Origin: Gammaproteobacteria bacterium
Lineage (GTDB): Bacteria; Pseudomonadota; Gammaproteobacteria; Eutrophobiales; Eutrophobiaceae
DNA: 64,000 nucleotides
NCBI GenBank assembly: GCA_965116495.1
Contig: OZ220696.1
Location: forward strand, 2,048,001 to 2,112,000
Direction of reading: 5' to 3'
The notes under the pieces were generated by a model. The model worked only from the letters and a program-made list of their open reading frames with translations, was not told where the DNA came from and made no database searches. Below, one piece after another: positions 22,296 through 39,595 of this stretch. The translations under genes and the position numbers were made by a program. How positions within the stretch are numbered: position 1 is the stretch's first letter; each line of letters starts with the position of its first letter.

Positions 22296-25037
22296 ATGCA
22301 GAATCAAGATAATACAACAATCCGGTTTTCACTGAACGGGCGGGATATCGAGGCCGGGGCGGAAGAAACCATCCTTGAGGCGGCGCAACGCCACGGGGTG
22401 GAGATCCCCCGGCTGTGCTACAAGGAAGGTTATCGGGCTGAGGGGAACTGCCGCGTCTGCATGGTGGAGGTAGAAGGCGAACGCACCCTGGCGCCGTCCT
22501 GCTGCCGTAAACCGGCTGCAGGCATGAAGGTCGATACCGAATCGGATCGTGTGGTCCACTCGCAGAAAATGGTGGTGGAATTATTGCAGGCCGATATGCC
22601 GCAACAGGGTGCGTCACCCTACCGCCTGGACTCGGAACTTGACCACTGGGCCACGGAATTGAACGTGTTTTCTCCCCGCTTCGAGCCGCGTGAACCGGTC
22701 GCTCCGGACTTGTCGCACCCGGCTATCGCGGTCAACCTTGATGCCTGTATACAGTGCACCCGCTGCGTACGCGCCTGCCGGGAAGAACAGGTTAACGACG
22801 TTATCGGTTACGCCATGCGCGGCAGGCACTCCGAAATCGTATTCGACATGGGCGACCTAATGGGCGAGAGTACCTGTGTGGCCTGCGGCGAATGCGTGCA
22901 GGCCTGTCCTACCGGCGCCCTGATGCCGGCCAGGAACGTAGGGCTGGTAAAACCGGACAACCAGGTCGATTCCGTCTGCCCCTATTGCGGGGTAGGCTGC
23001 CTGTTGACATTCAATGTAAAAAACAACCATATACAATATATTGAAGGACGGGACGGTCCTTCCAACCAGGGCCGCCTTTGCGTAAAGGGACGTTACGGCT
23101 TCGATTACGTGCATCATCCCGCCCGTTTGACGAGGCCGCTGATCCGGAAGCCCGGTACGCCCAAGACCCCGGAGATTATCGATTCCCGGTCGTTGCACCG
23201 GTATTTCCGCGAAGCGAGCTGGGAGGAGGCGTTGGAGTTGGCGGCTTCCGGCCTGCGCGCCATCCGGGAGACGCAGGGCTCCCGGGCCCTGGCCGGGTTC
23301 GGCTGCGCCAAGGGCAGTAACGAGGAAGCCTACCTGTTCCAGAAGCTGGTGCGCACCGGCTTCGGCACCAACAACGTGGACCATTGCACCCGCCTGTGCC
23401 ATGCCTCCTCGGTGGCCGCATTGCTGGAAACCATCGGCTCCGGCGCGGTCTCGAACCAGGTGGCCGACGGCACGCAGGCGGAGGTCATCATCGTGATCGG
23501 CGCCCGGCCCAACGACAACCACCCGGTGGCGGCCACCTTCATGAAGAACGCCACCCTGAACGGCAGCAAACTGATCGTGATTGAGCCGTACAGTTCCGAG
23601 ATGTACCTGCATGCCCATGCGTTCCTGCAACTGCGCCCGGGCACGGACGTGCTGCTGCTGAACGGCATCATGCACACCATCATCGACGAGGGACTGCACG
23701 ACCAGACGTTCATTGATGCGCATACCGACGGTTTTGATGCACTCCGGGAAACGGTGCGGGAATACAGCCCGGAGAAAGTGGCGCCGCTGTGCGGTATCGC
23801 CCCGGAGGCCATCCGGGAAACGGCGCGCCTGTATGCGACGGCAAAGACGGCCATCATCTTCTGGGGCATGGGCATTTCACAACACGTGCACGGGACGGAC
23901 AACGCCCGCTGCCTTATCTCGCTGGCGCTGATGACCGGGCAGATCGGCCGGCCCGGCACCGGCCTGCACCCGTTGCGCGGCCAGAACAACGTGCAAGGCG
24001 CCTCCGACATGGGTCTTGTCCCCATGGTTTACCCGGACTACCAGCCGGTGAAAGACCCCGCGGTGAGAAGCAGGTTCGAGGAGTTCTGGGGCGCGAAACT
24101 GGACCCGGACGCCGGCAAGACCGTGGTCGAGATCATGCACAGCGCCCATGCGGGAGATATCAATGGCATGTACATCATGGGAGAGAACCCGGCCATGTCC
24201 GACCCCAACCTGGAACACGCCCGGGAGGCGCTTACCAGGCTGGAGCACCTCGTGGTGCAGGATATCTTCTTCACGGAAACCTGCGGCTTCGCCGACGTTA
24301 TCCTGCCCGCGTCCGCGTTCCCGGAGAAAACCGGCACCTTTACCAACACCGACCGCCGAGTGCAACTCGGCCGCCAGGCGGTCACTCCGCCCGGCGAGTC
24401 CCGCCAGGACCTGTGGATCATCCAGGAACTGGCCCGCCGTCTCGACCTGGACTGGGACTACACCGGACCCGAAGCCGTATTCGAGGAGATCAGACAAGCG
24501 GTGCCCAGCATGGCCGGCATGACCTGGGCGCGGCTGGAAGATGAAGATTCACTCACCTATCCCCTGGTCAGGGAGGACGATCCGGGTGAGCCGGTGATAT
24601 TCAGGGACGGTATTTTCCCCACCGATGACGGCAGGGGCCGCTTCGTTGCGGCTGAATACATCGAGGCAGCAGAATTGCCCGACAACGACTATCCCTTCAT
24701 CTTCATGACCGGACGCCAACTGGAGCACTGGCACACCGGTACCATGACACGCCATTCCCGGGTCCTGAACACCATCGAACCCTGGCCTTATGTCCTGATC
24801 AACCCGGAAGATTTACAAGCGCTGGAGATGGAATCCGGCGACCTGCTTACCATCGAATCCCGCCGTGGCGCCCTCTCCGTCGCCACCCGCGTGGACGAAG
24901 GCATACAACCAGGCGTCCTGATGATGCCCTTCACCTACCACGAAGCCGCGGCAAACATCCTCACAAACGACGCCCTGGACCCCTTCGGAAAAATCCCTGA
25001 ATTCAAGTTCTGTGCGATACGGGTGAGCAAGCACTAG
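22296..25037 (+). CDS. Mo/W formate dehydrogenase alpha subunit (Cys type)
   Basis: N-terminal Fe-S domains; CPYCGVGC, LCVKG, DHCTRLCH and RGQNNVQG motifs. Confidence 0.94.
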   Translation: MQNQDNTTIRFSLNGRDIEAGAEETILEAAQRHGVEIPRLCYKEGYRAEGNCRVCMVEVEGERTLAPSCCRKPAAGMKVDTESDRVVHSQKMVVELLQADMPQQGASPYRLDSELDHWATELNVFSPRFEPREPVAPDLSHPAIAVNLDACIQCTRCVRACREEQVNDVIGYAMRGRHSEIVFDMGDLMGESTCVACGECVQACPTGALMPARNVGLVKPDNQVDSVCPYCGVGCLLTFNVKNNHIQYIEGRDGPSNQGRLCVKGRYGFDYVHHPARLTRPLIRKPGTPKTPEIIDSRSLHRYFREASWEEALELAASGLRAIRETQGSRALAGFGCAKGSNEEAYLFQKLVRTGFGTNNVDHCTRLCHASSVAALLETIGSGAVSNQVADGTQAEVIIVIGARPNDNHPVAATFMKNATLNGSKLIVIEPYSSEMYLHAHAFLQLRPGTDVLLLNGIMHTIIDEGLHDQTFIDAHTDGFDALRETVREYSPEKVAPLCGIAPEAIRETARLYATAKTAIIFWGMGISQHVHGTDNARCLISLALMTGQIGRPGTGLHPLRGQNNVQGASDMGLVPMVYPDYQPVKDPAVRSRFEEFWGAKLDPDAGKTVVEIMHSAHAGDINGMYIMGENPAMSDPNLEHAREALTRLEHLVVQDIFFTETCGFADVILPASAFPEKTGTFTNTDRRVQLGRQAVTPPGESRQDLWIIQELARRLDLDWDYTGPEAVFEEIRQAVPSMAGMTWARLEDEDSLTYPLVREDDPGEPVIFRDGIFPTDDGRGRFVAAEYIEAAELPDNDYPFIFMTGRQLEHWHTGTMTRHSRVLNTIEPWPYVLINPEDLQALEMESGDLLTIESRRGALSVATRVDEGIQPGVLMMPFTYHEAAANILTNDALDPFGKIPEFKFCAIRVSKH

Positions 25038-25136
25038 CCCGATCTGTTGACGGTTTGAACTGTTGGCGGTTTGAACTTGACTGCTACATACAATGGCATT
25101 AGTCTATGTGTGATTTAATGTGTGAGAAAGAACACA

Positions 25137-25337
25137 ATGGCAACCAACCTGTCTATAGACCCCGAATTACTCGATACAGCGCTGAAGTTGAGCGGCGAGA
25201 AAACAAAGAAAGCGACCGTTAACAAGGCGTTGCAGGAATTTATTTCGCGCAGGGAACAGGAAAGGCTTCTGGATCTTTTTGGAAAATTCGACTGGGACGG
25301 CGATTTCGACTACAAGCGTGAAAGGACCCGTTCATGA
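25137..25337 (+). CDS. vapB: VapB-family antitoxin
   Basis: MATNLSIDPELL...TKKATVNKALQEF; ATGA overlap with a vapC start. Confidence 0.85.
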   Translation: MATNLSIDPELLDTALKLSGEKTKKATVNKALQEFISRREQERLLDLFGKFDWDGDFDYKRERTRS

Positions 25338-25370
25338 CCCTGTTCGTGGATACCAGCGTCTGGTCTACCG
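25334..25370 (+). pseudogene. vapC: Truncated vapC 5' end
   Basis: MTLFVDTSVWS PIN-domain start that breaks off after about 11 codons. Confidence 0.7.
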
Positions 25371-25436
25371 AAACCTATCAATCTTCAGTTCCTGACTCCT
25401 GATTTTGCTCAAGTTTACTGAGGATTATCCATTGTA

Positions 25437-25958
25437 TCAGAGCATGTCACCCTGCCGGTACACGGGTGGTAATAGCTCTGTCGCTTCTGGCTGGCAAACT
25501 CTCAGATTCAGTTCTTGAAGTTTATCGCTTTTGTTGAGGATATTTCCATCCGTAGTGAGGAACTCCGCACAGTTCATCAGAAGCGCTGATGCAATATGGA
25601 TAGCATCAGCCGCTCCTTTGAGATATATCCCATCAACCCAGCGAAGCGCGCGAGCCTTTTCCATAATGGTGAAAGTAGGTTGAACCAGTCTAATCCCACT
25701 TTTACCAGAAGCTAGCAAACCATCATAGAAGCGCTTGATGTCATCAGGAGGATTAGGAACATTACGAATATGAGTACATTCAACAATCGATAATGACGAA
25801 GTCAGAAGATCAATTTTGTCATCCTTACCAGCCTTTATAAGTTGTCTGGTAAACCAGACATTACGTTCTGTCTTGTCCTCAAGCGACATCCCTGCCTTGT
25901 GCTTAGCCATATCGATAAACACGCACGCATCAATATAAACCCTGGGCATATCAGCCAT
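25437..25958 (-). CDS. PIN-domain protein
   Basis: VYIDACVFI, S.L..VE, DAIHIASA and FLTTD acidic PIN residues; start overlaps the upstream stop. Confidence 0.85.
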   Translation of the reverse strand: MADMPRVYIDACVFIDMAKHKAGMSLEDKTERNVWFTRQLIKAGKDDKIDLLTSSLSIVECTHIRNVPNPPDDIKRFYDGLLASGKSGIRLVQPTFTIMEKARALRWVDGIYLKGAADAIHIASALLMNCAEFLTTDGNILNKSDKLQELNLRVCQPEATELLPPVYRQGDML

Positions 25959-26772
25959 CTTGACGCACCTCCCTGATGAATTCTTCTGTTGACAGGTTTC
26001 CGGTATATTCTGGATACCTACCGACGAAAGCATCAATCCAACCTTCATCAAAATCCGGCGCCGGTCTGAAATCCGCAACCTGAATTGAGGCAATTTGTCC
26101 TCTCGCTCGATCTTCTGACACTTCGCCCTCAACAAAAATCACTGCTTCAGGTTCATGCAGTGTCTCGACTGCTGCTTGATACATATCTGGCGTAAAGAAA
26201 CAGTCAACTAGCGTCTTGGTTGAAAGTTCTCTTATAACCAGTTTTGGGGAGGCAGTTTCTTTGTAAAAAGCGTGGACGATACCCTGTATTTCCCCGTAAT
26301 AAGCTACAACCTGTGGCGTATCTTCAATAACTCTGATGGCAAATTCTTTGGTCAATTCGAACCAGTCCTCAGGTTCCTCATCCTGGTTTCCATAGAGACC
26401 AAATAAAACTTTCTCATCCGCATCGATAGGACTGGCAATCTGGGCATATTGCAGGCGAGTCGCAGGGCGAACCAACAAATCGATTTCAGGGTCGGAGTAA
26501 TCATTTGCCATGATGCTGTGAATAACACGGTTGCCACGATCAATGACTGCTGGCTCCAGTTCTCCGTCCCGTAAACAATCAAAATTCACTGAGTTATTCC
26601 CAAAATTAAGTGCAAGCCAACTCTTCGGGTCTTCGCCTATCCCGATGTCCTGATCGACTGCTATCAAGAACTTTAAGGTTTCCTTCACAACACGGCCAAG
26701 TTTGTCGAGCGGGACGCCAACTCGACCTTTGTTCAATTCAACTCTTAGTTTTAATTCATTCATGGTCTGCAT
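25951..26772 (-). CDS. Hypothetical protein coupled to the PIN gene
   Basis: 273-aa ORF with beta-rich C-terminal half; 8-bp overlap with the PIN gene. Confidence 0.75.
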   Translation of the reverse strand: MQTMNELKLRVELNKGRVGVPLDKLGRVVKETLKFLIAVDQDIGIGEDPKSWLALNFGNNSVNFDCLRDGELEPAVIDRGNRVIHSIMANDYSDPEIDLLVRPATRLQYAQIASPIDADEKVLFGLYGNQDEEPEDWFELTKEFAIRVIEDTPQVVAYYGEIQGIVHAFYKETASPKLVIRELSTKTLVDCFFTPDMYQAAVETLHEPEAVIFVEGEVSEDRARGQIASIQVADFRPAPDFDEGWIDAFVGRYPEYTGNLSTEEFIREVRQDG

Positions 26773-26882
26773 CTTGAACTAATGTTTTTAATTCTTCGAG
26801 ATTAGTTGCGTATATATTAGGAGGGGATACGCCATCAAAATCACCAAAGCTAACCTGGTGGAAAAGTCTCCAATCATCCATT

Positions 26883-27170
26883 TTATTGTGTGCCGCGGCA
26901 TACAACATTACACCGAAAGTGGTTGGTTTTGCCAAAAAACTTGCCTTCCTTGATGCACCAGAAAATGCTTAACCAAAGCACTATCATCGTAAAGAACAGT
27001 ATTTGAAGAGTTGACAAACTAGCAACTTGATCATTTCCTGCTGCGATTTGCAAAGGACTTAGCCAACAACGATTTTTCCCTTGACTTCTACAAACATAAC
27101 CTGCAGCTAGATAGGCGAGAATTACAAAAACTGTTGCCCAGAGCACTTCAGGATAAAAGTTGGTTTCCAT
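26883..27170 (-). CDS. Small membrane protein, possibly truncated
   Basis: Two hydrophobic segments (including SLSTLQILFFT); GAGG RBS upstream. Confidence 0.45.
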   Translation of the reverse strand: METNFYPEVLWATVFVILAYLAAGYVCRSQGKNRCWLSPLQIAAGNDQVASLSTLQILFFTMIVLWLSIFWCIKEGKFFGKTNHFRCNVVCRGTQ

Positions 27171-27387
27171 TTTTGTGTACCTCTATCAATTTTCCCGAAA
27201 ATTCCCACTGAGTGTTATGAGTTAGTCAGCATAATACCCATCCTGTAAGGACCAAGACGGAAGTGCTCAAAAATCTCAAAATAAATAACCCTCTGATGTA
27301 GAGCGTTTGTTCATGCTCAAAAACTCTGACCCTGCAGGTTCGTTGATTTTATTTGATTCAACATTGGAACACTAATAAAAACGTCAG

Positions 27388-27942
27388 TTATAATTTCTTG
27401 GCACCACGCTTGTGTATTTTGTTTTTCGGTTTTTTCATCTCCTCTTGGATATAGTTTTCAGTGCTTTTACCAGTGACCATATTCACGTTTATATTTATTG
27501 AAGTTTTGTCAGACTTTTCATCTATCCAAAAAGAAATTATGGCGTAGGTAGAAAGCCTGTAAACCAAATCAAACCAAGCAAACATGCGCTGGATCTCCTC
27601 GTCATTGTCTGGAGTATCAAGTGTCCCATGAAGCATTTGGTACATTCGATGAGTCGAGTGTTCAAATTCAGCAATAAATTCTCTTAATACCGTTTCCAAA
27701 TATTGCTTCTGTGAATGCCTACGTTCTCCTAATTTACCATTGAGAAATTTCCACAAAATGGCGCAATAGTCTTGCCAGCGGGCAAGTTGATTGGAATCTT
27801 CATCAAAGAACTTTTTTCCATCATTTTTTACACGCTGTATAGCTGCAAGCGCTATATAGGTGTGTGTTGAACTCGATGAGGCCTCAAAACGATCTGTGAG
27901 ATCAAATAACTGAAAATACCGATTTTGAAAACGCTCACCCAT
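27388..27942 (-). CDS. Hypothetical AT-rich protein
   Basis: 184-aa ORF just downstream of hsdS on the same strand. Confidence 0.55.
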   Translation of the reverse strand: MGERFQNRYFQLFDLTDRFEASSSSTHTYIALAAIQRVKNDGKKFFDEDSNQLARWQDYCAILWKFLNGKLGERRHSQKQYLETVLREFIAEFEHSTHRMYQMLHGTLDTPDNDEEIQRMFAWFDLVYRLSTYAIISFWIDEKSDKTSININVNMVTGKSTENYIQEEMKKPKNKIHKRGAKKL

Positions 27943-27978: not shown

Positions 27979-29505
27979 TCATAAACCCGATTCTTCTTTC
28001 AAACTTACATCCCCACTCATCAATTTTGGCAACAATGCGTCACGCAGGTTTTCAAGTATCTGAATTTGGGATTGATTTGAAATCATTTTTTCAAATAATG
28101 GAGTTACTTCAATTTCAAATTCCTGAATAACATTTTCTTGCGGTAACTTTACCGAATGTTCTTTAAAGGTGTCAGTCGTAATTGTATCAAAAACACTACC
28201 ATAGGCAGCTGACTGCAACCCATCAATTGAATGATCAACAAGCAAATAAGTAAAAAAATAAGAAGCTCCGAATTTTGGCTTTATCCCGTAATTTGATTGG
28301 CTGAATGCCATAGGCCCTGACACGATACCGTACTTTCCTACAGTGCCTCTTGCTGAAATGATAGTGGAATGTTTGGGGATTAATTTTGCTGAACTGTTTT
28401 TCAATCCCTCTACACTGATGGATTTTTCAGCAGAGGGGATTATGCCTTTGTGATTCACTGCAACGTCTTTGCCGGACACCCAGCCAACTTCCCCACCCCA
28501 ATACTCTGGAACAGACGTGCTTGGCGTGCCTCCTCCAACTAATTCAATGACATCATAAAGACTGAACACATCCCACTTTTCATTTTTATCTTCCGCAAAC
28601 CACTTTCTGAACAATGCCTGTGCCATGGCTTCCAGGGTTCTGTTCTGGCGGTGGAGCAGGTCTATTTTGTCGTCGAGGCTGGACAGGACTTCGGCGATGG
28701 CTTTTTGTTCGGGGAGTGGTGGCAGGAGAAATTGATATTCTTTAATTGCCGTAGGTGATGTATGTTTTATTGATGTTCCGCTAGCTGCGCCTACTACAAA
28801 CCAATGATAATCAGTGGTTCTTAATAACCAATAAATAAAATCCTGGTTTACAGTGCCTAATTCAAATTGCAATAATCCTATTCGTTGATTATGTAAGTAT
28901 GTTTTTCCAGTTTTGCTTTGGGGTACTTTTGCGGAGTAGCCAAGAGTATCCCCGTTTTTGCTCAGATCAGTCATCGTCACTATGACGTCATCTGCCTTCA
29001 AAATGTAATTTTGCGGAACTTGTCCGGTGAAATATTTTAGTTTCGATGACTTAAAACCACCACCTATTTTGAAATTGCCAGGAGTAACTAAAATTTTGTC
29101 ATTTTCTTGATCAGTAATAAATTGTCCTTTAAACGCATATCCATGTTTGACCTCTATCAAATCCCCCAACCTCACCTCCCTCCATCCCTCCGGCTGCCTC
29201 ATCTCCTCCTGCACCACCACATACTTCTCCCTGATCTTCTCCCTGAAACTCTCCGGTATGGCTTCCCAGTCCATAACGTCCACTGAGATCAGCAAATCAC
29301 TTTCTTCCAGATCTTCCTTGAGGTCATAAATCTCCATTGGAGTACAGTCGAATACGGCCAGGTCCAGGTCGGAGGTTTCTCTGGCTTTCCAGGTGACGCG
29401 GGAGCCGTAGGCCCAGACGGTTTTGTTAGGGATATGTTGTTTGAGAATGGCGTGGAGCAGGTCGAGTTGTTCCTGGTCCAGATCTATGAGTTTCTCTTTA
29501 CTCAT
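27979..29505 (-). CDS. hsdS: Type I R-M specificity subunit with N-terminal minimal nucleotidyltransferase (MNT) domain
   Basis: GS-x10-DLD motif in the first ~100 aa, then two TRDs and the conserved PPLPEQKAIA and LRDALLPKLMSG segments. Confidence 0.9.
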   Translation of the reverse strand: MSKEKLIDLDQEQLDLLHAILKQHIPNKTVWAYGSRVTWKARETSDLDLAVFDCTPMEIYDLKEDLEESDLLISVDVMDWEAIPESFREKIREKYVVVQEEMRQPEGWREVRLGDLIEVKHGYAFKGQFITDQENDKILVTPGNFKIGGGFKSSKLKYFTGQVPQNYILKADDVIVTMTDLSKNGDTLGYSAKVPQSKTGKTYLHNQRIGLLQFELGTVNQDFIYWLLRTTDYHWFVVGAASGTSIKHTSPTAIKEYQFLLPPLPEQKAIAEVLSSLDDKIDLLHRQNRTLEAMAQALFRKWFAEDKNEKWDVFSLYDVIELVGGGTPSTSVPEYWGGEVGWVSGKDVAVNHKGIIPSAEKSISVEGLKNSSAKLIPKHSTIISARGTVGKYGIVSGPMAFSQSNYGIKPKFGASYFFTYLLVDHSIDGLQSAAYGSVFDTITTDTFKEHSVKLPQENVIQEFEIEVTPLFEKMISNQSQIQILENLRDALLPKLMSGDVSLKEESGL

Positions 29506-29924
29506 TCTTCGTTGAGCATGGTTTCATAGATTTCTTCGGTATCCCGGATGAAACCTCCTACTTTGTCCAAGGCGGCTATGGCCTTTTCCATGCTGTAATC
29601 GTGAGCTGCGTCATTCCTGATCTTATTGTACTGAACCAGTCGCTTATGCACGTCTTTTTCGAAAAGCAAGTCTTCAAAAGCAGCACGGAAAATTGGGATT
29701 GGTGAGTTTCTCAGTTCAACCTTGCCATTTTCATCTTGCAGGTATTTCTTTATTTGCTTCCACAAGGCGTCATAGCAAATCTCGAAGCATTTAATGACGG
29801 AATTTTTCACGGCTCTCTGGTTGACTTCAGATAAGCCTTGCTCATCCAAGGTTGAATAACTTCCGTACTGTTCCTTTAGCTCATTGAGCGATTTCTCCAG
29901 TTTTTCGTAATTGATCCCGGTCAT
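29502..29924 (-). CDS. HEPN-domain protein (HI0074/HepT-like)
   Basis: IKCFEICY and RNDAAHDY (R-x4-H-x-Y); ATGA overlaps with both hsdM and hsdS. Confidence 0.87.
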   Translation of the reverse strand: MTGINYEKLEKSLNELKEQYGSYSTLDEQGLSEVNQRAVKNSVIKCFEICYDALWKQIKKYLQDENGKVELRNSPIPIFRAAFEDLLFEKDVHKRLVQYNKIRNDAAHDYSMEKAIAALDKVGGFIRDTEEIYETMLNEE

Positions 29925-31462
29925 GATGTTTCCTCCCATTGCACCTTCTCCAGGTTCTGCAAAATTCTCTTGTTCAACCGTTCTTCTTCAACAAGCTGTG
30001 TCTCGAGCTCCGTCTTCAACTCCTTAAACCTCGCCCCAAAGTCAAAATCATCTTCCTCCTCGGGCAAGCCGACGTAACGGCCGGGGCTCAGCACATAGTC
30101 CAGTTCCCGGATTTTCTCTATGGGTGTTGCGTGGCAGAAACCGGCGACGTCCTGGTAGTTGCCGTCCTTATTGCGCCACTGGTGGTAGGTGTCCGCAATT
30201 TTTCCTGTATCTTCAGCGGAAAATACCCGGGTGCGGCGGTTGATTAAATGCCCCAGGTCGCCGGCGTCTATGAACAGGATTTCACCGGCACGGTTGCGTT
30301 CGCCGTTATAGCCTTGCCGTTTGCCGGAGATGAACCACAGGCAGGCGGGTATCTGCGTATTGAGGAACAGTTTTGCCGGCAGGTTAACGATACAGTCCAC
30401 CAAACCGGCCTCTACGATGTTTTTGCGGATGACGTCCTCGTTGGAGGATTTGGAAGTGAGCGATCCTTTTGACAGCACGAAACCGGCCACGCCGCGGGGC
30501 GCCAGGTGGTGGATGAAGTGCTGCACCCAGGCAAAGTTGGCATTGCCTGGGGGTGGTGTGCCGTATCTCCAGCGACCATCGCCTGTTAGTTGCCGGCCGC
30601 TCCAGTCGCTGTCGTTGAATGGCGGATTGGCGAGGATGAAGTCTGCCTTGAGGTCGGGATGGACATCGTGCAGGAATGAGCCTTCCTTGTTCCACTTGAC
30701 CTGGGAGCCGTCTATATTGCGGATAGCCAAATTCATGCGGCACAGGCGGTAGGTGGTTTCATTGCTTTCCTGGCCGTAGATGGAAATGTCGTCGATTTTT
30801 CCCTGGTGGTTTTCCACGAATTTCTCGCTCATCACGAACATGCCGCCGCTGCCGCAGCAGGGGTCGAACACCCTGCCTGAGTAGGGTTCTATCATTTCCA
30901 CCAGCAGTTTCACGATGGAACTCGGGGTGTAGAACTGGCCGCCTTTCTTGCCTTCAGCCAGGGCGAATTCACCCAGGAAATACTCATACACCCTGCCGAG
31001 CACGTCTTTTGACTGTGCGCTTTGCTCAGCCAGGGCGATGTTGCTGATCAGATCGATCAGTTCCCCCAGGCTGGCTGAGGCCACGTTCATCCTGGCGAAT
31101 ACCCTGGGCAGGATGCCTTTCAGGGTTTGATTGTCCTTTTCTATCAGTTCCATCGCTTTATCCAGGATTTGACCGACGCTGGGTTGTTTCGCCTGTGCGC
31201 AGATGCGATTCCACCTGGCCTCCGGCGGTACCCAGAAAATGTTTTCTCCGACGTACTCGTCCGGGTCTTCCGGGTCGGCGAACTCGATGTTTGACAGTTC
31301 CTCGTAGCGGGTGAGGAATGAGTCCGAGATGTATTTGAGGAAGATCAGGCCGAGGACGATGTGTTTGTACTGGGCCGCGTCGATGTTTTTGCGCAGTTTA
31401 TCCGCGGTTTTGAACAGTTGGGCTTCCAGTCTTTCTGGTCCGGTGGAGTGGTTCTTTGCCAT
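29921..31462 (-). CDS. hsdM: Type I R-M m6A methyltransferase
   Basis: GQFYTP, DPCCGSGG and NPPF motifs. Confidence 0.96.
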   Translation of the reverse strand: MAKNHSTGPERLEAQLFKTADKLRKNIDAAQYKHIVLGLIFLKYISDSFLTRYEELSNIEFADPEDPDEYVGENIFWVPPEARWNRICAQAKQPSVGQILDKAMELIEKDNQTLKGILPRVFARMNVASASLGELIDLISNIALAEQSAQSKDVLGRVYEYFLGEFALAEGKKGGQFYTPSSIVKLLVEMIEPYSGRVFDPCCGSGGMFVMSEKFVENHQGKIDDISIYGQESNETTYRLCRMNLAIRNIDGSQVKWNKEGSFLHDVHPDLKADFILANPPFNDSDWSGRQLTGDGRWRYGTPPPGNANFAWVQHFIHHLAPRGVAGFVLSKGSLTSKSSNEDVIRKNIVEAGLVDCIVNLPAKLFLNTQIPACLWFISGKRQGYNGERNRAGEILFIDAGDLGHLINRRTRVFSAEDTGKIADTYHQWRNKDGNYQDVAGFCHATPIEKIRELDYVLSPGRYVGLPEEEDDFDFGARFKELKTELETQLVEEERLNKRILQNLEKVQWEETS

Positions 31463-31580
31463 GGTGTCAGATTATACTCCTTGTTGGTATAAAGATGGCT
31501 TATCCAGGAGATTCCTGCTTGCGCAGGAATGGTAGTCTCCTTTATGTATTTCTGCTTGGACAGGAATGGTGGTCTACTTA

Positions 31581-34500
31581 TTATGTTGTTCCGGTACTCC
31601 ATTCATCCGCCAGCAGCTCGGTTTGCCGTAGGATGTTCTCTGTAGCCAGCTTTTGCTGGTCGGGCGGATAGCCGTATTCCCGCAACAGGCGTCTCACGGT
31701 TGTCCTGAGTTTCGCCCGTGCGCTTTCTTTGATGGTCCAGTCAATCGATATGTTTTGTTTTACACGTTGCACCAGCACTTGGGCCAGGGAGCGTAAGGTA
31801 TCATCACCCATGACCTCCTTTGCACTCTCGTTGAGTATCAGGCTGTCATAAAACGCGACTTCATCATCCGACAAGCCCATGTCGGCCACTTTATCGTCCG
31901 ACACTTTTATCTCTTTGGCAAGCTGTATCAGTTCCTCAATCACCTGCGCAGTAGTCAGCAGATTGTTCCGGTATTTCCTGATGGCGGCTTCCAGCATCTC
32001 GGAAAACCTTTTGCCTTGGGCAAGATTCTTCCTTCTCCTGGTTCGCAATTCATCGTTCAGGATCTTCTTCAGCAGTTCGAGGGCAAGGTTCTTGCGTTTC
32101 ATGCCCTGGATTTCCTGCAGGAAGTCATCGGAAAGAATAGAGATATCCGGCTTCTTGATGCCGGCGGCCTCAAATATATCGAGCACGCCTTCCACGACGA
32201 CCGCCTTGTCAACAATCTGCCGTATGGCGGTTTCCACCTCGTCCAGGCTTTTGCCGCTGCCTTGCTGTTCAAATTTTTTCAGGCGCGCCTTCACGGCCTG
32301 GAAAAAACCCACCTCGGCCTTGATCGCCATGGCCCTGGGGTCCGGCACGGACAACGCAAACGCTTTTTCCAGCAGGCCGACCTCCCTGGTAAATCGCTCC
32401 TTGCCGTTTTCCAGACCAAGAACGTGCTCCTCAGCTTCCAGGATAAGGCCCAGCTTTACCTGTGTGTCGGCAGAAAAATAGGTCTTGTAGGCAAAACGAT
32501 CAAACATGGCCGCGACGACGGCGTGTTTTTCCAGCATTTTTTCCACTGCCTGCTCCTGCTCAAAAGCCGGCGCGCCCCTGCCATTGCTTTGGGTATAGGA
32601 AACCAGGGCTTGTTTCAAATCTGAGGCAATACCGATATAGTCCACAACCCTGCCACCGGGCTTGTCCTTGTACACCCGGTTGACCCGGGCGATGGCCTGC
32701 ATCAGGCTGTGCCCGCGCATGATTTTGTCAAGGTACATCGTTGTCAGGCAGGGTGCGTCAAACCCGGTCAGCCACATGTCCCGCACGATGACGATCTGCA
32801 ATGGGTCGTCGGGGTCCTGAAAACGTTCCCGTAGCGTCTTGCGCTCCGTTTTGCTGGTACTGTGCCGTTGCCACGTCGCGGGGTCGCTTGAAGATGAGGT
32901 CATGATCACCTTCACCTGTCCCTTGCTTTTATCTTCATCGTGCCAATCGGGACGCAAGCCAACTATTTCATCGTACATGGCCACCGCGATCCGGCGGCTG
33001 GTGGCAACGATCATGGCCTTGCCGGCAAACGCCTCCTGCCTGGCATCAAAATGCTTGAGGATATCCGTTACGACCGATTTCACTCGTTCCTCATGCCCTA
33101 TAATCGCTTCCTGCTTGCTCCATTTTACCTTTGCCTTCTCCGTTGCCGTTGCTTCTTCGCTTTCGGTGATACCCTCAACCTCGGCGTCCAGTTCCGCTTT
33201 TTCCTCTTCCTCCAAATGCACTTGCACCAACCGGGATTCGTAATACACCGGCACAGTCGCGCCATCTTCGACGGCTTGTTCTATGTCGTAAACGTCGACG
33301 TAATTGCCGAAGACCGCCGGGGTCGATGCATCTTCCTTTTCAATGGGCGTGCCGGTAAAACCGATGAAAGTCGCTTCGGGGAGGGCATCCCGCAGATACT
33401 TGGCAAAACCATAATTGGTTTTCGCACCGTCCTTGACAAAGTGGGTCCGGGCGCCGAAACCGTACTGGCTGCGGTGCGCTTCATCTGCGATGACAATGAT
33501 GTTGTGTCGGTTGGACAGCAGTTGGAAGTTTTCACTGCCGTCTTCAGGCAGGAACTTCTGGATGGTTGAGAAGACGATACCCCCTCCCGCGGTCTGCAAG
33601 AGTTGTTTCAACTGCGCACGGCTTTCCGCCTGTTTGGGAACCTGCCTGAGCAGTTCCTTCCCCGCGATAAAAGCATCGAATAACTGATCGTCAAGGTCAT
33701 TACGATCGGTAATGACAACGATAGTCGGATTGTTCATCTCCCGGTGTACGACCAGCAGGCCGGCGTAAAATACCATGGACAAGGATTTGCCACTACCCTG
33801 CGTGTGCCAGACTACCCCCGCCTTGCGGTCTCCCCTGGGTTGGCCTTTGACTCCGGGCAGGTTGTATACCCCGGGATCTTCCTCGACGTTCTCTCCGGAT
33901 GAGGCCCTGATAGTGGATTTAACCGCTTCCTTCACCGCGTGATACTGGTGGTATGCCGCTACTTTCTTGATAGTTTCAATACTTATCTGGCCGCTGGCCG
34001 GGTCTTCCTGTTTCACTTTCTCAAAGACGGAAAAGTGGCGAACCAGCTCCAGTAACACGTCCGGTCGCAGCATACCTTTGATCAGCGTCAACAGTTGCGG
34101 CGTCGTGTTGGGATCTTCCTTTTTCCCATCCACGGTCTTCCACGCCATGAACCGGCTCCAGCCGGCAGTCACGGAACCGGCTTTTGCATCCAGGCCGTCT
34201 GAGGCAACCAGCACACCGTTGTAGCAAAACAGGCTGGAGATTGTCTCTTTGTACGTTTGCAATTGGTCAAACGCTTTCCTCGGAGTCGCATTCTCATCGG
34301 CCGGGTTCTTCAATTCGATGACGACCATGGGCAGGCCGTTCACAAACAGGATAATATCCGGGCGTTTTGTCACGCCTGTTCCATGACCGGAAAGAGGTTT
34401 GTTTTCCGTTACGGTAAACTGGTTGCAGACTACGAAATCATTATTAAGCGGGGTCTCAAAATCAATCAAACGCACTTTGACCCCGATTGTTTCACCGTCT

Positions 34501-34793
34501 TTCTGCCGGTCTTCCGTTACACCTTCCCTCAGCATCTCATGGAACAGTTCGTTGCTTGCAACGGGATTCTGACCGGCGAGGGCGAGCGCCCGCCTGCGTG
34601 CCTGCTCTCTGATCTCATTCGGGATGGCCGGATTCAGTTTGTCAATCGCTGCTTGCAGACGTGTGCCCAGGACAACGTCGGAGAAGTCGTGTCTTTCAAA
34701 CTCCTGTGCTTCCGGGGACAGGTATAACCAACCCTGGCGCTCCAGGAGTTCCACGGCTAACTGTTCAACGTCGGACTCGTAGAGGGAGGTCAT
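31581..34793 (-). CDS. hsdR: Type I restriction subunit R
   Basis: RPD...IELK nuclease motif; HTQGSGKS, DEAH, FTGTP and QAIARVNR helicase motifs. Confidence 0.96.
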   Translation of the reverse strand: MTSLYESDVEQLAVELLERQGWLYLSPEAQEFERHDFSDVVLGTRLQAAIDKLNPAIPNEIREQARRRALALAGQNPVASNELFHEMLREGVTEDRQKDGETIGVKVRLIDFETPLNNDFVVCNQFTVTENKPLSGHGTGVTKRPDIILFVNGLPMVVIELKNPADENATPRKAFDQLQTYKETISSLFCYNGVLVASDGLDAKAGSVTAGWSRFMAWKTVDGKKEDPNTTPQLLTLIKGMLRPDVLLELVRHFSVFEKVKQEDPASGQISIETIKKVAAYHQYHAVKEAVKSTIRASSGENVEEDPGVYNLPGVKGQPRGDRKAGVVWHTQGSGKSLSMVFYAGLLVVHREMNNPTIVVITDRNDLDDQLFDAFIAGKELLRQVPKQAESRAQLKQLLQTAGGGIVFSTIQKFLPEDGSENFQLLSNRHNIIVIADEAHRSQYGFGARTHFVKDGAKTNYGFAKYLRDALPEATFIGFTGTPIEKEDASTPAVFGNYVDVYDIEQAVEDGATVPVYYESRLVQVHLEEEEKAELDAEVEGITESEEATATEKAKVKWSKQEAIIGHEERVKSVVTDILKHFDARQEAFAGKAMIVATSRRIAVAMYDEIVGLRPDWHDEDKSKGQVKVIMTSSSSDPATWQRHSTSKTERKTLRERFQDPDDPLQIVIVRDMWLTGFDAPCLTTMYLDKIMRGHSLMQAIARVNRVYKDKPGGRVVDYIGIASDLKQALVSYTQSNGRGAPAFEQEQAVEKMLEKHAVVAAMFDRFAYKTYFSADTQVKLGLILEAEEHVLGLENGKERFTREVGLLEKAFALSVPDPRAMAIKAEVGFFQAVKARLKKFEQQGSGKSLDEVETAIRQIVDKAVVVEGVLDIFEAAGIKKPDISILSDDFLQEIQGMKRKNLALELLKKILNDELRTRRRKNLAQGKRFSEMLEAAIRKYRNNLLTTAQVIEELIQLAKEIKVSDDKVADMGLSDDEVAFYDSLILNESAKEVMGDDTLRSLAQVLVQRVKQNISIDWTIKESARAKLRTTVRRLLREYGYPPDQQKLATENILRQTELLADEWSTGTT

Positions 34794-34885: not shown

Positions 34886-36130
34886 TCACGAGGGTTTGGC
34901 CCAGAGAAATTGCAGCGGCAAAGCGTAGAGCTTGTCCCCGAAAGGCATAACCCTGTCGCCGGTGTACAGTAACACACCACCGGCAAACTTCTCACCCAAT
35001 GCTTCCTCGAGCTTGCGCAGCCCTTTGAAGTCGGAATTGACAACTGTGCCGGAAGCCTTCACTTCAACACCTGCCGCGGCGAGCGCGCTGCGTTGTATTA
35101 CAATATCCACTTCGACGCCATAGCGGTCGCGAAAGTGATGGAAAGTATGGCGCTGCTGATGCGCGCTGGCCTGCCGCTTCAGTTCCTGCAACACGAAGGT
35201 CTCGAGAATATGACCGAATAAAGGCCGATTCGCCGACAGCGATACCGCGTTCAGGTTCAACAACGCACAGATAATCCCCGTATCACAGAGATGTATCTTC
35301 GAGGTCTTTACCAGCCGTTTCAAGTGGTTATTATGCCAGGGTGGAATTCTTTCCAGCAAAAACATTTTTTCCAGGAGCGTGAGGTACTTCCCTATTGTCA
35401 ACCTGTTGAGTTGAAAGGAAGAGGCCAGACCATTCACGTTTAACAGTTGCGCGGTTTGCGCCGCCGCCAGTTGCAGCAACCGCGGCAGGGTTTCAAGAGA
35501 TTGAATTTCCATAATTATTGACGCATCGCGCTCAATCAGGGCTTCGATATAGGTCTGGTACCAGTTGGCTCGTCTGGTCGGGGTACGCTGCAAGGCAGCC
35601 GGGTAGCCTCCCGCCACCACGCGCCTGATCACCTGCTCGTCAAACGGCGGTTCCTCACGTATGAAGGAATCCGAGGCAAACAGGAAATCCAGAAATCGGG
35701 GCGCAGTCCGTTCAAGTTCATTCTGTGAGAAAGGATGCAATCTTACTATGTCCATACGACCGGCCAGCGATTCTTTTGTGCGGGTCATTTGCAACAGGTT
35801 CACCGAACCGGTCAGTATGAAACGGCCCGCGGTGCGGTCGTTATCAATGGCCAGTTTGATAGATGGAAACAGTCCGGGCACCAACTGCGCTTCATCCAGG
35901 ATCGTCCGGTCCGGCAAAGATTTTACAAAACCGAGCGGGTCTTCTGTGGCGTAACTGCGCGTGCCATCATCGTCAAAAGTCGAGTATTGGTAACCCTCGG
36001 ACTCCCCTATTGTCTGAGCAAGCGTCGTCTTGCCGCATTGGCGCGGTCCCTGTATCAGAACAGCAGGAGAATCAGCCAGCGCCTCCATCAGGCGCGGTTC
36101 AATATGACGTTGGTAATGATTGTTGTTCAT
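34886..36130 (-). CDS. AAA+ ATPase (AAA_14) with DUF4143 C-terminal domain
   Basis: GPRQCGKTT, ILDEAQ, LTGS, ESLAGR and GGYP motifs; C-terminal EVD...EVK. Confidence 0.9.
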   Translation of the reverse strand: MNNNHYQRHIEPRLMEALADSPAVLIQGPRQCGKTTLAQTIGESEGYQYSTFDDDGTRSYATEDPLGFVKSLPDRTILDEAQLVPGLFPSIKLAIDNDRTAGRFILTGSVNLLQMTRTKESLAGRMDIVRLHPFSQNELERTAPRFLDFLFASDSFIREEPPFDEQVIRRVVAGGYPAALQRTPTRRANWYQTYIEALIERDASIIMEIQSLETLPRLLQLAAAQTAQLLNVNGLASSFQLNRLTIGKYLTLLEKMFLLERIPPWHNNHLKRLVKTSKIHLCDTGIICALLNLNAVSLSANRPLFGHILETFVLQELKRQASAHQQRHTFHHFRDRYGVEVDIVIQRSALAAAGVEVKASGTVVNSDFKGLRKLEEALGEKFAGGVLLYTGDRVMPFGDKLYALPLQFLWAKPS

Positions 36131-36156
36131 AGGGTAAAGTTATTAATCTGTTATGC

Positions 36157-36327
36157 GGCTGATTATCAGTCAACCCCATGGCTGATTGTTACTCTACCTC
36201 ACGGCTGATTGTTAGTAAACCCTATGGCTGATTGTTACTCTACCTGCGGCTAATTGTTACTGCACCCTACGGTTGATTGTCAGTTATAACTGCGACTGAT
36301 TGAAAACTTTACAGGAAAGCTGATTGT
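36157..36327. repeat. Tandem array of ~23-bp units with GGCTGATTGTTA core
   Basis: Units start at 36157, 36180, 36203, 36226, 36248 and 36271; degenerate units at 36294 and 36318. Confidence 0.9.
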
Positions 36328-36377: not shown

Positions 36378-36704
36378 ATGACTGACTTCTTCATTAACGA
36401 CGCGTGGGCCCAGGGCGCTGGGCAGGGGGGCGGTGGCTCTTTCCTGTTCATGATGGTCCTGTTTTTTGTCATATTTTATTTCTTTTTAATCCGGCCGCAG
36501 ATGAAGCAGGCCAAGGAACACAAGGCACTGGTCGGCGGTCTGGCCAAAGGGGATGAAGTCGTGACCAACGGCGGTGTGCTGGGAAAGATCAACCAGGTGG
36601 GGGATAATTTCATAGTACTGGAAATTGCGAAGGAGACGGAGATCAAAGTGCAGAAATCGGCCGTTTCCGCGGTACTGCCCAAGGGAACGCTGAAAACACT
36701 CTGA
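36378..36704 (+). CDS. yajC: Preprotein translocase subunit YajC
   Basis: FYFFLIRPQ and KGDEVVTNGG; upstream of secD. Confidence 0.97.
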   Translation: MTDFFINDAWAQGAGQGGGGSFLFMMVLFFVIFYFFLIRPQMKQAKEHKALVGGLAKGDEVVTNGGVLGKINQVGDNFIVLEIAKETEIKVQKSAVSAVLPKGTLKTL

Positions 36705-36751
36705 CCAGGCGTCTTGTTACAGTATTTCAACCGCCTGTGGACTGCCACTTC

Positions 36752-36786
36752 AAATTCCTAATTCCTAATTCTTAATTCCTAATTCC
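36752..36786. repeat. Heptamer (AATTCCT) tandem repeat
   Basis: About five aattcct/aattctt units. Confidence 0.8.
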
Positions 36787-36798
36787 AGTTCGCTGTCT

Positions 36799-38658
36799 AT
36801 GAACCGTTATTCTCTCTGGAAATACCTGTTTATCAGCGCCATTATTGCGGTCGGTTGCCTGTACGCGTTACCCAATCTTTACGGCAAGGACCCGGCCCTG
36901 CAGGTCTCTGCAGCGCGGGGAGCCGAGATCAGCGAGTTGACCCGGTATTCCGTTGAAGATGCCCTCGACAAGGCGGGCATAAAATACGGCGCGATAAGCC
37001 TGGGTGCAGGGAACCTTGTGGTCAGGTTCCAGGATGAAGGAACCCAGCTCAAGGCCCAGGACATAGTGAAGGAAGCGCTGGGCCGTTCCTATACCGTGGC
37101 CCTGAACCTGGCGCCGGCAACGCCGGGCTGGTTGCAGACGTTCGGCGCCGAACCCATGTTCCTTGGCCTGGACCTGCGCGGCGGCGTACATTTCCTGATG
37201 CAAGTTGACATGGAGGCAGCGGTTGCCAAGGCGGAGGAACGTTACGTCTCGGACATCAGGACGCAACTGCGGGATAACCGGATCCGCTATAAAACCATAA
37301 CCCGGCGCAGGGATGGCGGATTATTGATCAGGTTCCGCGGCGCCGACCAGCTCTCGCAGGGCATCACCGAGATAGAGGATAATTTTCCCGACCTGGAACT
37401 TGAACAAACCCAGGCGGACGGCGACGAATTTCCCCTGACAGCAAGGTTGAGTGAGAGTGCCGTGACAGAGACCCGGCGCCTGGCCCTGCAACAGAACATC
37501 ACCACCTTGCGCAAACGGGTCAACGAACTGGGCGTGGCCGAACCGGTCATCCAGCAACAGGGGCTGGAGCGGGTGGTCGTGCAACTTCCGGGTGTACAGG
37601 ATACCGCCAGGGCAAAAACCATCCTGGGCGCTACCGCAACCCTGGAATTCCGCATGTCCGACGAGGAACATGCCGTACAGGATGCCCTGGACGGCCGGGT
37701 ACCGGCCGGTTCACGGCTCTATTATGAACGCGGCGGCAACCCGGTCCTGTTGAAGAAACAGGTTATGCTGACCGGCGACTATATCATCGACGCCGCGGCC
37801 GGTTTCGATTCCGTCTCCGGCAGCCCCAACGTCTCCATCACCCTGGACGGCAAGGGCGCAAAGCGGTTCAGTGATGCCACCGCCGAGGAAGTCGGCCGGA
37901 ATATGGCCGTTGTGTTTATCGAGAACAAGACGGAGACTGTCGAAAGAGACGGTGAAAGGGTGAAACGCAAGGAAACCATAGAAGAAGTGATCAACGTGGC
38001 TACAATCCGCGAGCAACTGGGTAAGCGCTTTCAAATCACCGGTCTTGATTCCACCGAGGAATCCCGCAACCTGGCCCTGCTGCTCCGGGCCGGCGCCCTG
38101 GCGGCGCCCATCGAGATCATTGAAGAACGTACCGTAGGTCCCAGTCTCGGCCAGGACAATATCGACAAGGGCTTCATGTCGGTCAAGATCGGATTTATCC
38201 TGGTGCTGATTTTCATGGCTTTCTGGTACAAGGCCTTCGGCCTGGCTGCCGACGTGGCCCTGGCGCTGAACCTGGTGTTGATCGTCGCCCTGCTGTCGAT
38301 GCTGCAGGCAACCCTGACCCTGCCGGGTATCGCCGGCATTGTACTGACCGTGGGCATGGCGGTGGACGCCAACGTGCTCATCTTCCAGCGTATCCGCGAG
38401 GAGATCAGGAACGGCAATTCACCCCAGGCCAGTATCCATGCCGGTTATGAAAAGGCGTTTAAGACCATTGCCGATGCCAATATCACAACCTTGTTTGCCG
38501 CCATCGTACTGTTCAGTTTCGGCACCGGGCCGATCAAGGGGTTTGCGGTAACCCTGTCCCTGGGGATAGTCTGCTCCATGTTTACCGCGATCATGGTAAC
38601 CCGGGGCATCGTAAACCTGGTATACGGCGGCAAGAAGCTACGGCGGCTCGTTATCTGA
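36799..38658 (+). CDS. secD: Protein translocase subunit SecD
   Basis: LGLDLRGG, ERTVGPSLG and GMAVDANVLI motifs. Confidence 0.98.
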   Translation: MNRYSLWKYLFISAIIAVGCLYALPNLYGKDPALQVSAARGAEISELTRYSVEDALDKAGIKYGAISLGAGNLVVRFQDEGTQLKAQDIVKEALGRSYTVALNLAPATPGWLQTFGAEPMFLGLDLRGGVHFLMQVDMEAAVAKAEERYVSDIRTQLRDNRIRYKTITRRRDGGLLIRFRGADQLSQGITEIEDNFPDLELEQTQADGDEFPLTARLSESAVTETRRLALQQNITTLRKRVNELGVAEPVIQQQGLERVVVQLPGVQDTARAKTILGATATLEFRMSDEEHAVQDALDGRVPAGSRLYYERGGNPVLLKKQVMLTGDYIIDAAAGFDSVSGSPNVSITLDGKGAKRFSDATAEEVGRNMAVVFIENKTETVERDGERVKRKETIEEVINVATIREQLGKRFQITGLDSTEESRNLALLLRAGALAAPIEIIEERTVGPSLGQDNIDKGFMSVKIGFILVLIFMAFWYKAFGLAADVALALNLVLIVALLSMLQATLTLPGIAGIVLTVGMAVDANVLIFQRIREEIRNGNSPQASIHAGYEKAFKTIADANITTLFAAIVLFSFGTGPIKGFAVTLSLGIVCSMFTAIMVTRGIVNLVYGGKKLRRLVI

Positions 38659-38680
38659 CTGACTGTCCCGGTACTGTCCC

Positions 38681-39595
38681 ATGCAAAACTCGACGCAAAG
38701 ATTCAATTTCGACTTTATGGGTAAACGCAAAACTGCGGTTATCTTCTCGGCCCTGCTCCTGAGTGTTTCCCTTGTCTCCCTGTTCACCCAGAAACTCAAT
38801 TTCGGCATCGATTTTACCGGCGGCACCCTGGTTGAAGCCGGTTACCAGGAAACCGTTGAACTTGACCAGGTCAGGAATGTACTGTCCGCCACCGAGTTCA
38901 GCGATGCGGTCGTCCAGTATTTCGGTTCCGCCAGGGACATACTGATACGGGTTGCCCAGGTACAGGGCAGGAACAGCGCGGATATCAGCAACGAGATTAT
39001 CAAGGTCCTGGAACAGTCCGGCCAATCCGTCGAGATCCGCCGGGTGGAATTCGTCGGTCCCCAGGTAGGTGAAGACCTGCAGGAAGACGGCGGGCTGGCG
39101 ATGATCTATGCGCTGATCATGATATTTATTTATATCGCATTCCGCTTCCAGCGCCTGTTCTCCGTCGGCGCCATCGCCGCGCTGGTGCACGATGTCACCA
39201 TCACCATCGGTTTCTTTTCCGTTCTGCAACTGGATTTTGATTTAACCGTCCTGGCTGCGCTGCTGGCGGTTATCGGCTATTCACTCAACGACACCATCGT
39301 CGTGTTTGACCGGATCCGGGAAAATTTCCGCCGCATGCGCAAGGTATCACCGGTCGAGGTGGTCAATGCGTCATTGAACCAGACCCTGAGCCGTACCCTG
39401 ATGACGTCCCTGACAACCCTGCTGGTATTAACCGCCCTGTTCTTCCTGGGGGGCGAGATCATCCGGCCGTTCTCCGCCGCATTGATTGTCGGGGTCATCA
39501 TAGGGACTTATTCTTCCATCTACGTTGCCAGCCCGGTCACCCTGGCGCTGGGAATCAGCAAACAGGACTTGATGCCGGTCGAGAAAGAAGAGTAA
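38681..39595 (+). CDS. secF: Protein translocase subunit SecF
   Basis: GIDFTGG and GYSLNDTIVVFDRIRE motifs. Confidence 0.98.
   Translation: MQNSTQRFNFDFMGKRKTAVIFSALLLSVSLVSLFTQKLNFGIDFTGGTLVEAGYQETVELDQVRNVLSATEFSDAVVQYFGSARDILIRVAQVQGRNSADISNEIIKVLEQSGQSVEIRRVEFVGPQVGEDLQEDGGLAMIYALIMIFIYIAFRFQRLFSVGAIAALVHDVTITIGFFSVLQLDFDLTVLAALLAVIGYSLNDTIVVFDRIRENFRRMRKVSPVEVVNASLNQTLSRTLMTSLTTLLVLTALFFLGGEIIRPFSAALIVGVIIGTYSSIYVASPVTLALGISKQDLMPVEKEE

Follow-up and report, generated by a model that had tools for sequence, protein, structure and literature searches.

AMPylation of a HEPN protein by its partner minimal nucleotidyltransferase (MNT) has been shown for pairs in which the two are separate proteins (PMC7641770 and PMC11586414, in the parts available), and the first of these papers states that the trigger of HEPN/MNT pairs is an open question. 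In its type VII toxin-antitoxin (TA) system, HepT/MntA, a PF01934 or PF08780 toxin with an RX4HXY motif stands beside an MNT of the PF01909 clan with a GSX10DXD motif. A HEPN nuclease gene is also embedded within EcoprrI, a type I restriction-modification (R-M) operon whose PrrC is linked to the R-M complex (PMC3874165 and PMC12707154, available parts). Here we describe a locus that resembles both, a type I R-M operon at positions 27979..34793, on the minus strand, of a 64,000-nt stretch (the window) of a gammaproteobacterial genome assembled as a single 4.34-Mb contig. Its gene order, from the open reading frame (ORF) listing and family profiles, is hsdR-hsdM-HEPN-MNT::hsdS, and the MNT is part of the specificity subunit HsdS. 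Such MNT::HsdS fusions are recurrent, not sporadic, and about one in five operons of the window's HsdM family carries one (8/40 in a gammaproteobacterial sample).

This arrangement was proposed by a sequence-only reading of the window and is present as described, including an ATGA overlap of stop and start codons at both the hsdM/HEPN junction (29924-29921) and the HEPN/MNT::hsdS junction (29505-29502). The HEPN protein, 140 aa long if the ATG overlapping the hsdM stop is taken as its start (15 nt downstream of the start given by the ORF finder), matches Pfam NTase_sub_bind, PF08780, at 62 bits (cut-off 31.8), and its matches lie in the HEPN clan only. The fusion protein matches Polbeta, PF18765, at residues 19-98 (42.3 bits, cut-off 26.9) and Methylase_S from residue 105; its MNT part is also above the PF01909 cut-off, at 22.7 bits. 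Both motifs picked out by the sequence-only reading are kept, with R103/H108/Y110 in the HEPN and G34/S35/D46/D48 in the first ~100 aa of the HsdS. Profile searches with both small genes place the HI0074/HI0073 pair best (HEPN to 1jog, E 3e-19, and to 8xdj, E 4.5e-13; MNT to HI0073, 1no5, E 1.3e-32), followed by the Thermus and Legionella HEPNs, with Shewanella HepT a weak match; the NCBIfam cut-offs are not reached (HepT NF047751 19.4/60, MntA NF047752 41.5/60, HI0074 50.2/55.8 bits). In an AlphaFold model of the fusion protein (mean pLDDT 85.9, pTM 0.74) the MNT domain resembles HI0073 (1no5) with a TM score of 0.87-0.88, and two target recognition domains (TRDs) and conserved helices at residues 264-305 and 457-497 are seen, Foldseek matching the model to the HsdS structure 1yf2 with E 4.8e-27. 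By family and motif the two are thus a class I HEPN/MNT pair of the HI0074/HI0073 kind. The type I set around them is complete by sequence, with hsdR, hsdM and an hsdS of two TRDs and two conserved helices, all in intact frames.

The fusion gene is a single 508-aa frame with no stop before the first TRD, as the sequence-only reading had it, and contigs from three of four public runs cross the MNT/HsdS junction without a gap and with every letter unchanged, and thus without a stop or frameshift (X5, record 28423-30011; X1 and X2, records 29119-29412). X5 comes from a different study from X1 and X2, which may be the source sample. With the junction unchanged in these contigs and the fusion recurring elsewhere, an assembly artefact is ruled out. 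The suggestion that free HsdS might also be made from an ATG at 29202 does not hold as a family feature. The purine-rich stretch before this ATG is present, at a distance of 2-3 nt that is too close for its Shine-Dalgarno-like role, and the internal start is not conserved: an ATG with a Shine-Dalgarno match of at least four bases occurs at only 4/59 fusion junctions. A methionine is found in the linker of 8/120 and 17/150 fusion proteins in two protein sets.

MNT::HsdS fusions accompanied by HEPN genes, which the sequence-only reading had named as the thing to look for, are readily found. When proteins of 279-889 aa were searched with the MNT part, 131 matched, and all 120 of those listed are MNT::HsdS, 118 of them with GSX10DXD. 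With a profile built from 40 fusions, the best 150 representatives of 50%-identity clusters are fused without exception (148 with GSX10DXD); there are at least 150 such clusters, a number inflated by the variable TRDs, and the MNT domains of these representatives form 40 groups at 60% identity. An MNT profile matched in 62/401, 21/126, 13/151, 55/400 and 14/151 genomes of five samples. Among 146 distinct MNT domains, a set enriched for fusions by the deliberate choice of long frames, 60 are on HsdS (in 59 genes) and one is on HsdM; of the free domains, seven stand immediately ahead of hsdS and 78 in other places.

An unbiased count was taken from the hsdM side in 300 gammaproteobacterial genomes, the window's genome excluded. 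These gave 52 hsdM matches, 12 of which could not be classed (hsdS not seen in ten, too short in two). The 40 classifiable operons comprise eight with HEPN-MNT::hsdS, two with HEPN-MNT followed by a separate hsdS, one with a dead HEPN only and 29 with none of these, and at one of the two unfused loci (L201) a C-terminal remnant of an MNT remains at the start of the hsdS frame. Five of the 29 plain operons hold other inserts between hsdM and hsdS (DUF1016_N, Bro-N, DUF4258-MqsA and, twice, YhcG). None of the five is fused to HsdS, compared to eight fused and two unfused for HEPN-MNT (Fisher p 0.007, an overstated significance as kin are not independent).

A complete hsdM-HI0074-MNT::hsdS-hsdR set lies on plasmid pZMOB01 of the cultured strain Zymomonas mobilis ATCC 10988, an unfused version is found on Acetobacter ascendens plasmids, and free HEPN-MNT pairs occur on other Zymomonas plasmids. 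Loci titled Leptospiria and Longimicrobiales are among the examples, and in the phylum sample around the Longimicrobiales locus 10/17 MNT matches are fusions. Searches of E. coli genomes with blastn and of phages with tblastn gave no match, which is not evidence of absence. A Zymomonas ZM4 plasmid system, described in the available parts of PMC8432527, has had its hsdS deleted and holds a gene, x027, between hsdM and hsdS, which gives it the look of a natural experiment; it was not among the blastn matches of the pZMOB01 fusion, and the word 'nucleotidyl' is absent from the text of that paper.

Several variants of the architecture were seen. At L087:3193-6882 a HEPN-MNT::hsdM is followed by a truncated HEPN-MNT::hsdS, and here an MNT is joined to the methyltransferase subunit. 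Four proteins of 714-807 aa (P0041, P0132, P0156, P0174) have a DUF559 nuclease-like domain between the TRDs. A tandem double MNT precedes HsdS in 6/120 and 3/150 proteins of the two sets (L203, P0038, P0041, P0055, P0083), the second MNT of L203 being without one catalytic Asp. Stacked HEPN-MNT-HEPN-MNT arrays stand between hsdM and hsdS at L122, L125, L197 and L198, and where there is a fusion only the last MNT is on HsdS. A copy without hsdR at L219:12007-18710 is followed by TIR, SIR2-like and HerA genes.

The reading that we favour, to which we give about an even chance, is that the two small genes would form a toxin-antitoxin pair of the ordinary AMPylation type, with an antitoxin that is merely a passive attachment to the specificity subunit. 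A HEPN gene stands directly upstream of 53/59 fusion genes and 48 of these have RX4HXY, a figure that overstates the intact toxins because six of the 53 partner frames are short (47-120 aa; two at contig edges, the others broken). Among 120 motif-bearing HEPNs beside an MNT, the partner has G, S, D, D, D in 104, a third Glu in 11, a third Gln in four and a changed first Asp in one. Eight HEPNs have no MNT within 80 nt downstream, and all four motif-bearing ones among them have one close by, such that no intact (motif-bearing) HEPN without a nearby MNT was seen in the loci examined; the motif is gone from the only HEPN that immediately precedes a plain hsdS (L200). Where decay has set in, it has affected the toxin first or both genes together. 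In L004 the HEPN is cut by a deletion and the MNT has a stop; L213, L214 and L216 have a motif-dead HEPN with an intact MNT, and their sister L217 has only a trace of HEPN and an MNT in which DxD has become DxN; L009 has no HEPN and its MNT has lost the third Asp. Median dN/dS among close relatives is 0.09 for HEPN (7 pairs with estimable dS), 0.14 for MNT (17), 0.08 for hsdM (21) and 0.11 for hsdR (10). Catalytic and acceptor residues are therefore conserved and both small genes are under purifying selection, in agreement with the identity first proposed for the pair, and the loss pattern, as far as sequence can tell, fits toxin-antitoxin dependence. Of the two functions that the sequence-only reading had offered, this suits the addiction device.

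Some fusions have kept the MNT motif intact beside a dead or absent HEPN, and some proteins carry the MNT twice, both of which would be expected if the tethered enzyme had been co-opted to nucleotidylate an R-M subunit, a phage protein or DNA near the bound site and so regulate restriction, with the HEPN secondary. We consider this very improbable, as the catalytic residues of the MNT have decayed in 2/6 fusions without an adjacent HEPN but in only 1/48 with a motif-bearing one, and as the MNT tracks the HEPN and not HsdM.

The latter point comes from a comparison of identities over 34 loci by rank correlation. MNT identity follows HEPN identity (0.62; partial 0.60 given HsdM) and hardly that of HsdM (0.21; partial 0.06 given HEPN) or of the HsdS conserved region (partial 0.00), whereas HsdM and the HsdS conserved region go together at 0.73. 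HsdMs that are 80-84% alike carry MNTs only 33-41% alike, each of them fused; a free relative at 75-91% identity exists for 12 of the fused MNTs; and TRD1 can be swapped under a kept MNT, as in L002 (MNT 88%, TRD1 32%). The HEPN can be swapped as well. Three pairs of loci (L003 and the window, L089/L090, L210/L212) have HEPNs that differ under a near-constant MNT (MNT/HEPN 86/46%, 84/42% and 79/29%), which suggests that one MNT may serve divergent toxins. Fused and free MNTs interleave on the MNT tree, a quick search on 98 columns for 143 rows, with 27 changes of state, at least 10 of them forced by starred branches; fused and plain HsdMs likewise interleave on the HsdM tree (16 changes, at least 13 forced), a FastTree in which the stars are less reliable. 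Neither tree can tell gain from loss. A single ancient fusion inherited with the methylase is not supported, the two states being interleaved on both trees. Free pairs mostly lie beside unrelated housekeeping genes (64/98 neighbours scanned). Together these patterns point to a mobile TA pair that probably enters the slot between hsdM and hsdS, fuses at the natural C-terminus of the MNT and then travels by hsdS cassette exchange.

The other proposed function is that tethering makes the RNase a sensor of R-M integrity. Here the MNT would work solely for as long as its HsdS is part of a methylase or restriction complex that is intact and unchallenged; a phage anti-restriction protein or proteolysis of HsdS would turn it off, and unmodified HEPN would then halt growth, as with PrrC for EcoprrI. 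The position between hsdM and hsdS suits such a guard, as do the preference of HEPN-MNT for fusion (8 to 2, with the other inserts at 0/5), the survival of the fusion through TRD exchange, and the three toxin swaps under a near-constant MNT, which phage pressure would predict. Guard systems are moreover established (PMC12707154 and PMC3874165, available parts), and defence functions are enriched among the genes found inside type I operons (bioRxiv 2024.01.29.577857, available parts). However, the MNT shows no co-variation with HsdM or with the HsdS conserved region, linkers between MNT and HsdS range from 0 to 38 residues, and in L087 the MNT is fused to HsdM instead; because of these three observations no co-evolved MNT-methylase interface is visible, and there is no sign of a fitted one in the 34 loci. 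Close relatives at 75-91% identity are free pairs that mostly stand beside housekeeping genes, L219 is without hsdR in the 19 kb examined, and a covalent off-mark would be slow to reverse. We regard a guard at this locus as doubtful, and none of our tests supported the specific sensor of the original proposal, which is therefore upheld only in part. Equally questionable is its general form, a widespread guard architecture in which an AMPylating antitoxin has been joined time and again to the specificity subunit, in ~1 in 5 operons of this type I family. Any event by which the methylase complex is lost, sequestered or inhibited would then release an exchangeable HEPN RNase, the antitoxin and not the toxin would be the sensor, and the whole would amount to a modular, convergent PrrC-like back-up immunity.

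Another alternative is a neutral passenger, a pair in a known cargo slot whose small MNT tolerates a C-terminal fusion, whose toxin is weak or silent, and whose fusion has no effect beyond leaving R-M activity intact. Free pairs are common (78/146 MNT domains), fusion state changes often on both trees, unfused versions exist in Acetobacter, and fusions persist with a motif-dead HEPN (five) or without an adjacent one (six); in the window, moreover, a lysine (K45) replaces the glutamine that is catalytic in a Legionella relative. Nonetheless, HEPN and MNT are under purifying selection, no intact toxin without an MNT was seen, the other inserts in the same slot are unfused, and the fusion is present in one operon per five of the HsdM family. 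On this record we think a passenger unlikely.

For the favoured TA pair with a passively tethered antitoxin, we propose that the MNT, carried on HsdS within the M2S1 methylase, would use ATP to AMPylate Y110 in the HEPN dimer and so keep the HEPN off. With the toxin translated just upstream by coupling, the dose of antitoxin would follow hsdS synthesis and HsdS stability, and the fusion likely entrenches the pair and couples antitoxin dose to hsdS expression. It would act as a ratchet, in that clean excision of the pair would need a rebuilt hsdS start and loss of the MNT alone would be toxic; the pair would then be lost in just two ways, through exchange of the cassette for a plain hsdS or through decay starting in the toxin. 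A cassette of the end of hsdM, HEPN and MNT::TRD1 would pass from one methylase backbone to another in the course of ordinary hsdS shuffling. The probable effect would be retention of the operon, together with a generic back-up toxin if operon expression collapses, with no recognition of a particular anti-restriction protein.

In addition to the short HEPN frames mentioned above, several observations weigh against this reading. In the closest characterised relative, the Legionella HEPN, the RX4H residues are dispensable and a Q-x-x-E magnesium site (Q44/E47) is catalytic (PMC11586414, available parts). The window HEPN has K45-x-x-E48 at that position, albeit a common natural variant (Lys in 13/49 fused and 16/69 free partners), and the RX4HXY motif alone is therefore no proof of toxicity. 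An AMP mark lasts, and killing after gene loss would need either incomplete modification, which is reported in the available parts of PMC11586414, or removal of the AMP. As the MNT is N-terminal, a stop in a TRD spares it, which is seen in the truncated fusions of L087 and L092, and any protection of hsdS could be only partial. An intact MNT persists with a dead or absent HEPN in 9/59 fusions. Most operons are plain ones, which interleave with the fused, so that absence or loss of the pair is frequent. Finally, the strong excess of fusion over other inserts could equally mean selection for a guard role.

The coordinates of the operon and its parts are collected in Table 1.

Table 1. Genes, domains and motifs of the operon, in window coordinates.
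Feature	Position	Strand	Description
hsdR	31581..34793	-	type I restriction subunit, 1070 aa, frame intact; TIGR00348 598.6 bits against a cut-off of 284.55; PADLOC REase_I
hsdM	29921..31462	-	type I methyltransferase subunit, 513 aa; stop overlaps HEPN start (ATGA)
HEPN gene	29502..29924	-	HI0074/NTase_sub_bind family, 140 aa, predicted RNase toxin
RX4HXY motif of HEPN, R103-x4-H108-x-Y110	29595..29618	-	Y110 is the predicted AMP acceptor, by analogy to PMC7641770 (available parts)
MNT::hsdS fusion gene	27979..29505	-	508 aa, one open frame; start overlaps HEPN stop (ATGA)
MNT domain, residues 1-101 of fusion	29203..29505	-	Pol-beta-type minimal nucleotidyltransferase, HI0073 family, predicted adenylyltransferase antitoxin
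G34-S35-x10-D46-x-D48 motif of MNT	29362..29406	-	third Asp, D76, at 29278-29280
HsdS part of fusion	27979..29202	-	TRD1, central conserved helix, TRD2, distal conserved helix

The operon lies in an island between a formate-dehydrogenase-like gene (22296-25037) and yajC-secD-secF-like genes (36378-39595), which we presume them to be from their translations; the secD-side neighbours are the same in L005 and L007. Directly upstream of hsdR is an AAA_14-DUF4143 gene on the minus strand (34886-36130; PADLOC PDC-S01), whose position is kept in L001, L003 and L004 and which has 20 more paralogues in the source genome. Upstream of it, ~5 imperfect tandem repeats of 22-23 bp (36134-36327) mark the island edge. 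On the other side the island ends in a low-GC tail (25122-27942) with orf184, orf95, a VapB-like plus-strand gene and a gene of 273 aa that shares an overlap with a PIN gene. In L006 the operon is followed by an 85% copy of this 273-aa gene; orf184, which lies downstream of the operon, matched no family in profile searches. Between hsdR and hsdM, at 31511-31579, are two 32-bp direct copies, 84% alike and each partly palindromic. No repeats flanking the HEPN-MNT insert were found at the locus, and scans for promoters and terminators gave numbers no different from chance (16 vs 11.6 +/- 3.1 and 15 vs 13.1 +/- 3.3, respectively). The source genome has six further hsdM-like and six further hsdR-like matches, with no second HEPN or MNT of the same family by tblastn. 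The names of some relatives (Ca. Spongiihabitans) suggest a sponge habitat.

HEPN/MNT pairs are among the commonest TA modules, and an antitoxin that is a domain of a restriction subunit offers a direct handle on the question of their trigger. Fused and split forms can be compared within one operon, and a complete copy is at hand on the pZMOB01 plasmid of a strain that is both in culture and harmless. There are also practical consequences. The fusion is annotated as 'restriction endonuclease subunit S', so TA finders would report the HEPN as an orphan. Strain engineering in which such an hsdS is deleted in full would take away the predicted antitoxin while the toxin gene stayed behind. Should the guard reading be true, type I restriction would have a second, modular back-up.

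The individual parts of this system are known, and the joining of MNT to HsdS appears to be undescribed. No description of it was found in open PMC full texts and bioRxiv, the scope of a search that lies outside subscription papers and supplements; it is not mentioned in the available parts of the Xylella preprint, PMC10123105, PMC6158711, PMC13645617, PMC13000451, PMC12839542 or PMC2701414, and bioRxiv 2022.09.01.506293 has no matching terms. The closest precedents are in databases and surveys. The window MNT matches PADLOC PDC-S09 (E 1e-8) and also positions 2-99 of the Specificity_I model PDLC03138, so the fusion is already present, unnamed, in a database model of HsdS; the source of the PADLOC R-M models is not stated in the available parts of PMC8565338. 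In Table 1 of Anantharaman et al. 2013 (PMC3710099, available parts), HEPN-T clusters with R-M operons and HEPN-M (PF08780/DUF86) is fused to MNT, REase and methylase domains, and the available main text has neither HsdS nor 'specificity subunit'. Genes found by 'guilt-by-embedding' (bioRxiv 10.1101/2024.01.29.577857, available parts) occupy the same cargo slot in the same orientation, but that cargo is presented as separate genes, whereas in the window it includes a domain of a core subunit; MNT, nucleotidyltransferase and hsdS do not occur in the available main text.

Among the closest known pairs, the HI0074/HI0073 branch is represented by PDB 1jog/1no5 and the Legionella HEPN-MNT by PDB 8xdj/8xeo (PMC11586414, available parts), the window having a Lys at the Legionella Gln of the Mg site. 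In HepT/MntA, a module of two genes, the antitoxin is a small protein that stands alone, in contrast to the window, where the MNT is the N-terminal domain of HsdS in one 508-aa frame and the pair is chained by translation within a type I operon. PrrC differs in other respects. It carries an ABC ATPase (PMC3710099, available parts), while the window HEPN is 140 aa without one; and it is almost only found embedded in type I operons (bioRxiv 2024.01.29.577857, available parts), unlike the often free pairs of the window type. PrrC is silenced by the R-M complex itself, whereas the HEPN of the window has a predicted enzymatic antitoxin of its own, and what is joined to the complex is this antitoxin.

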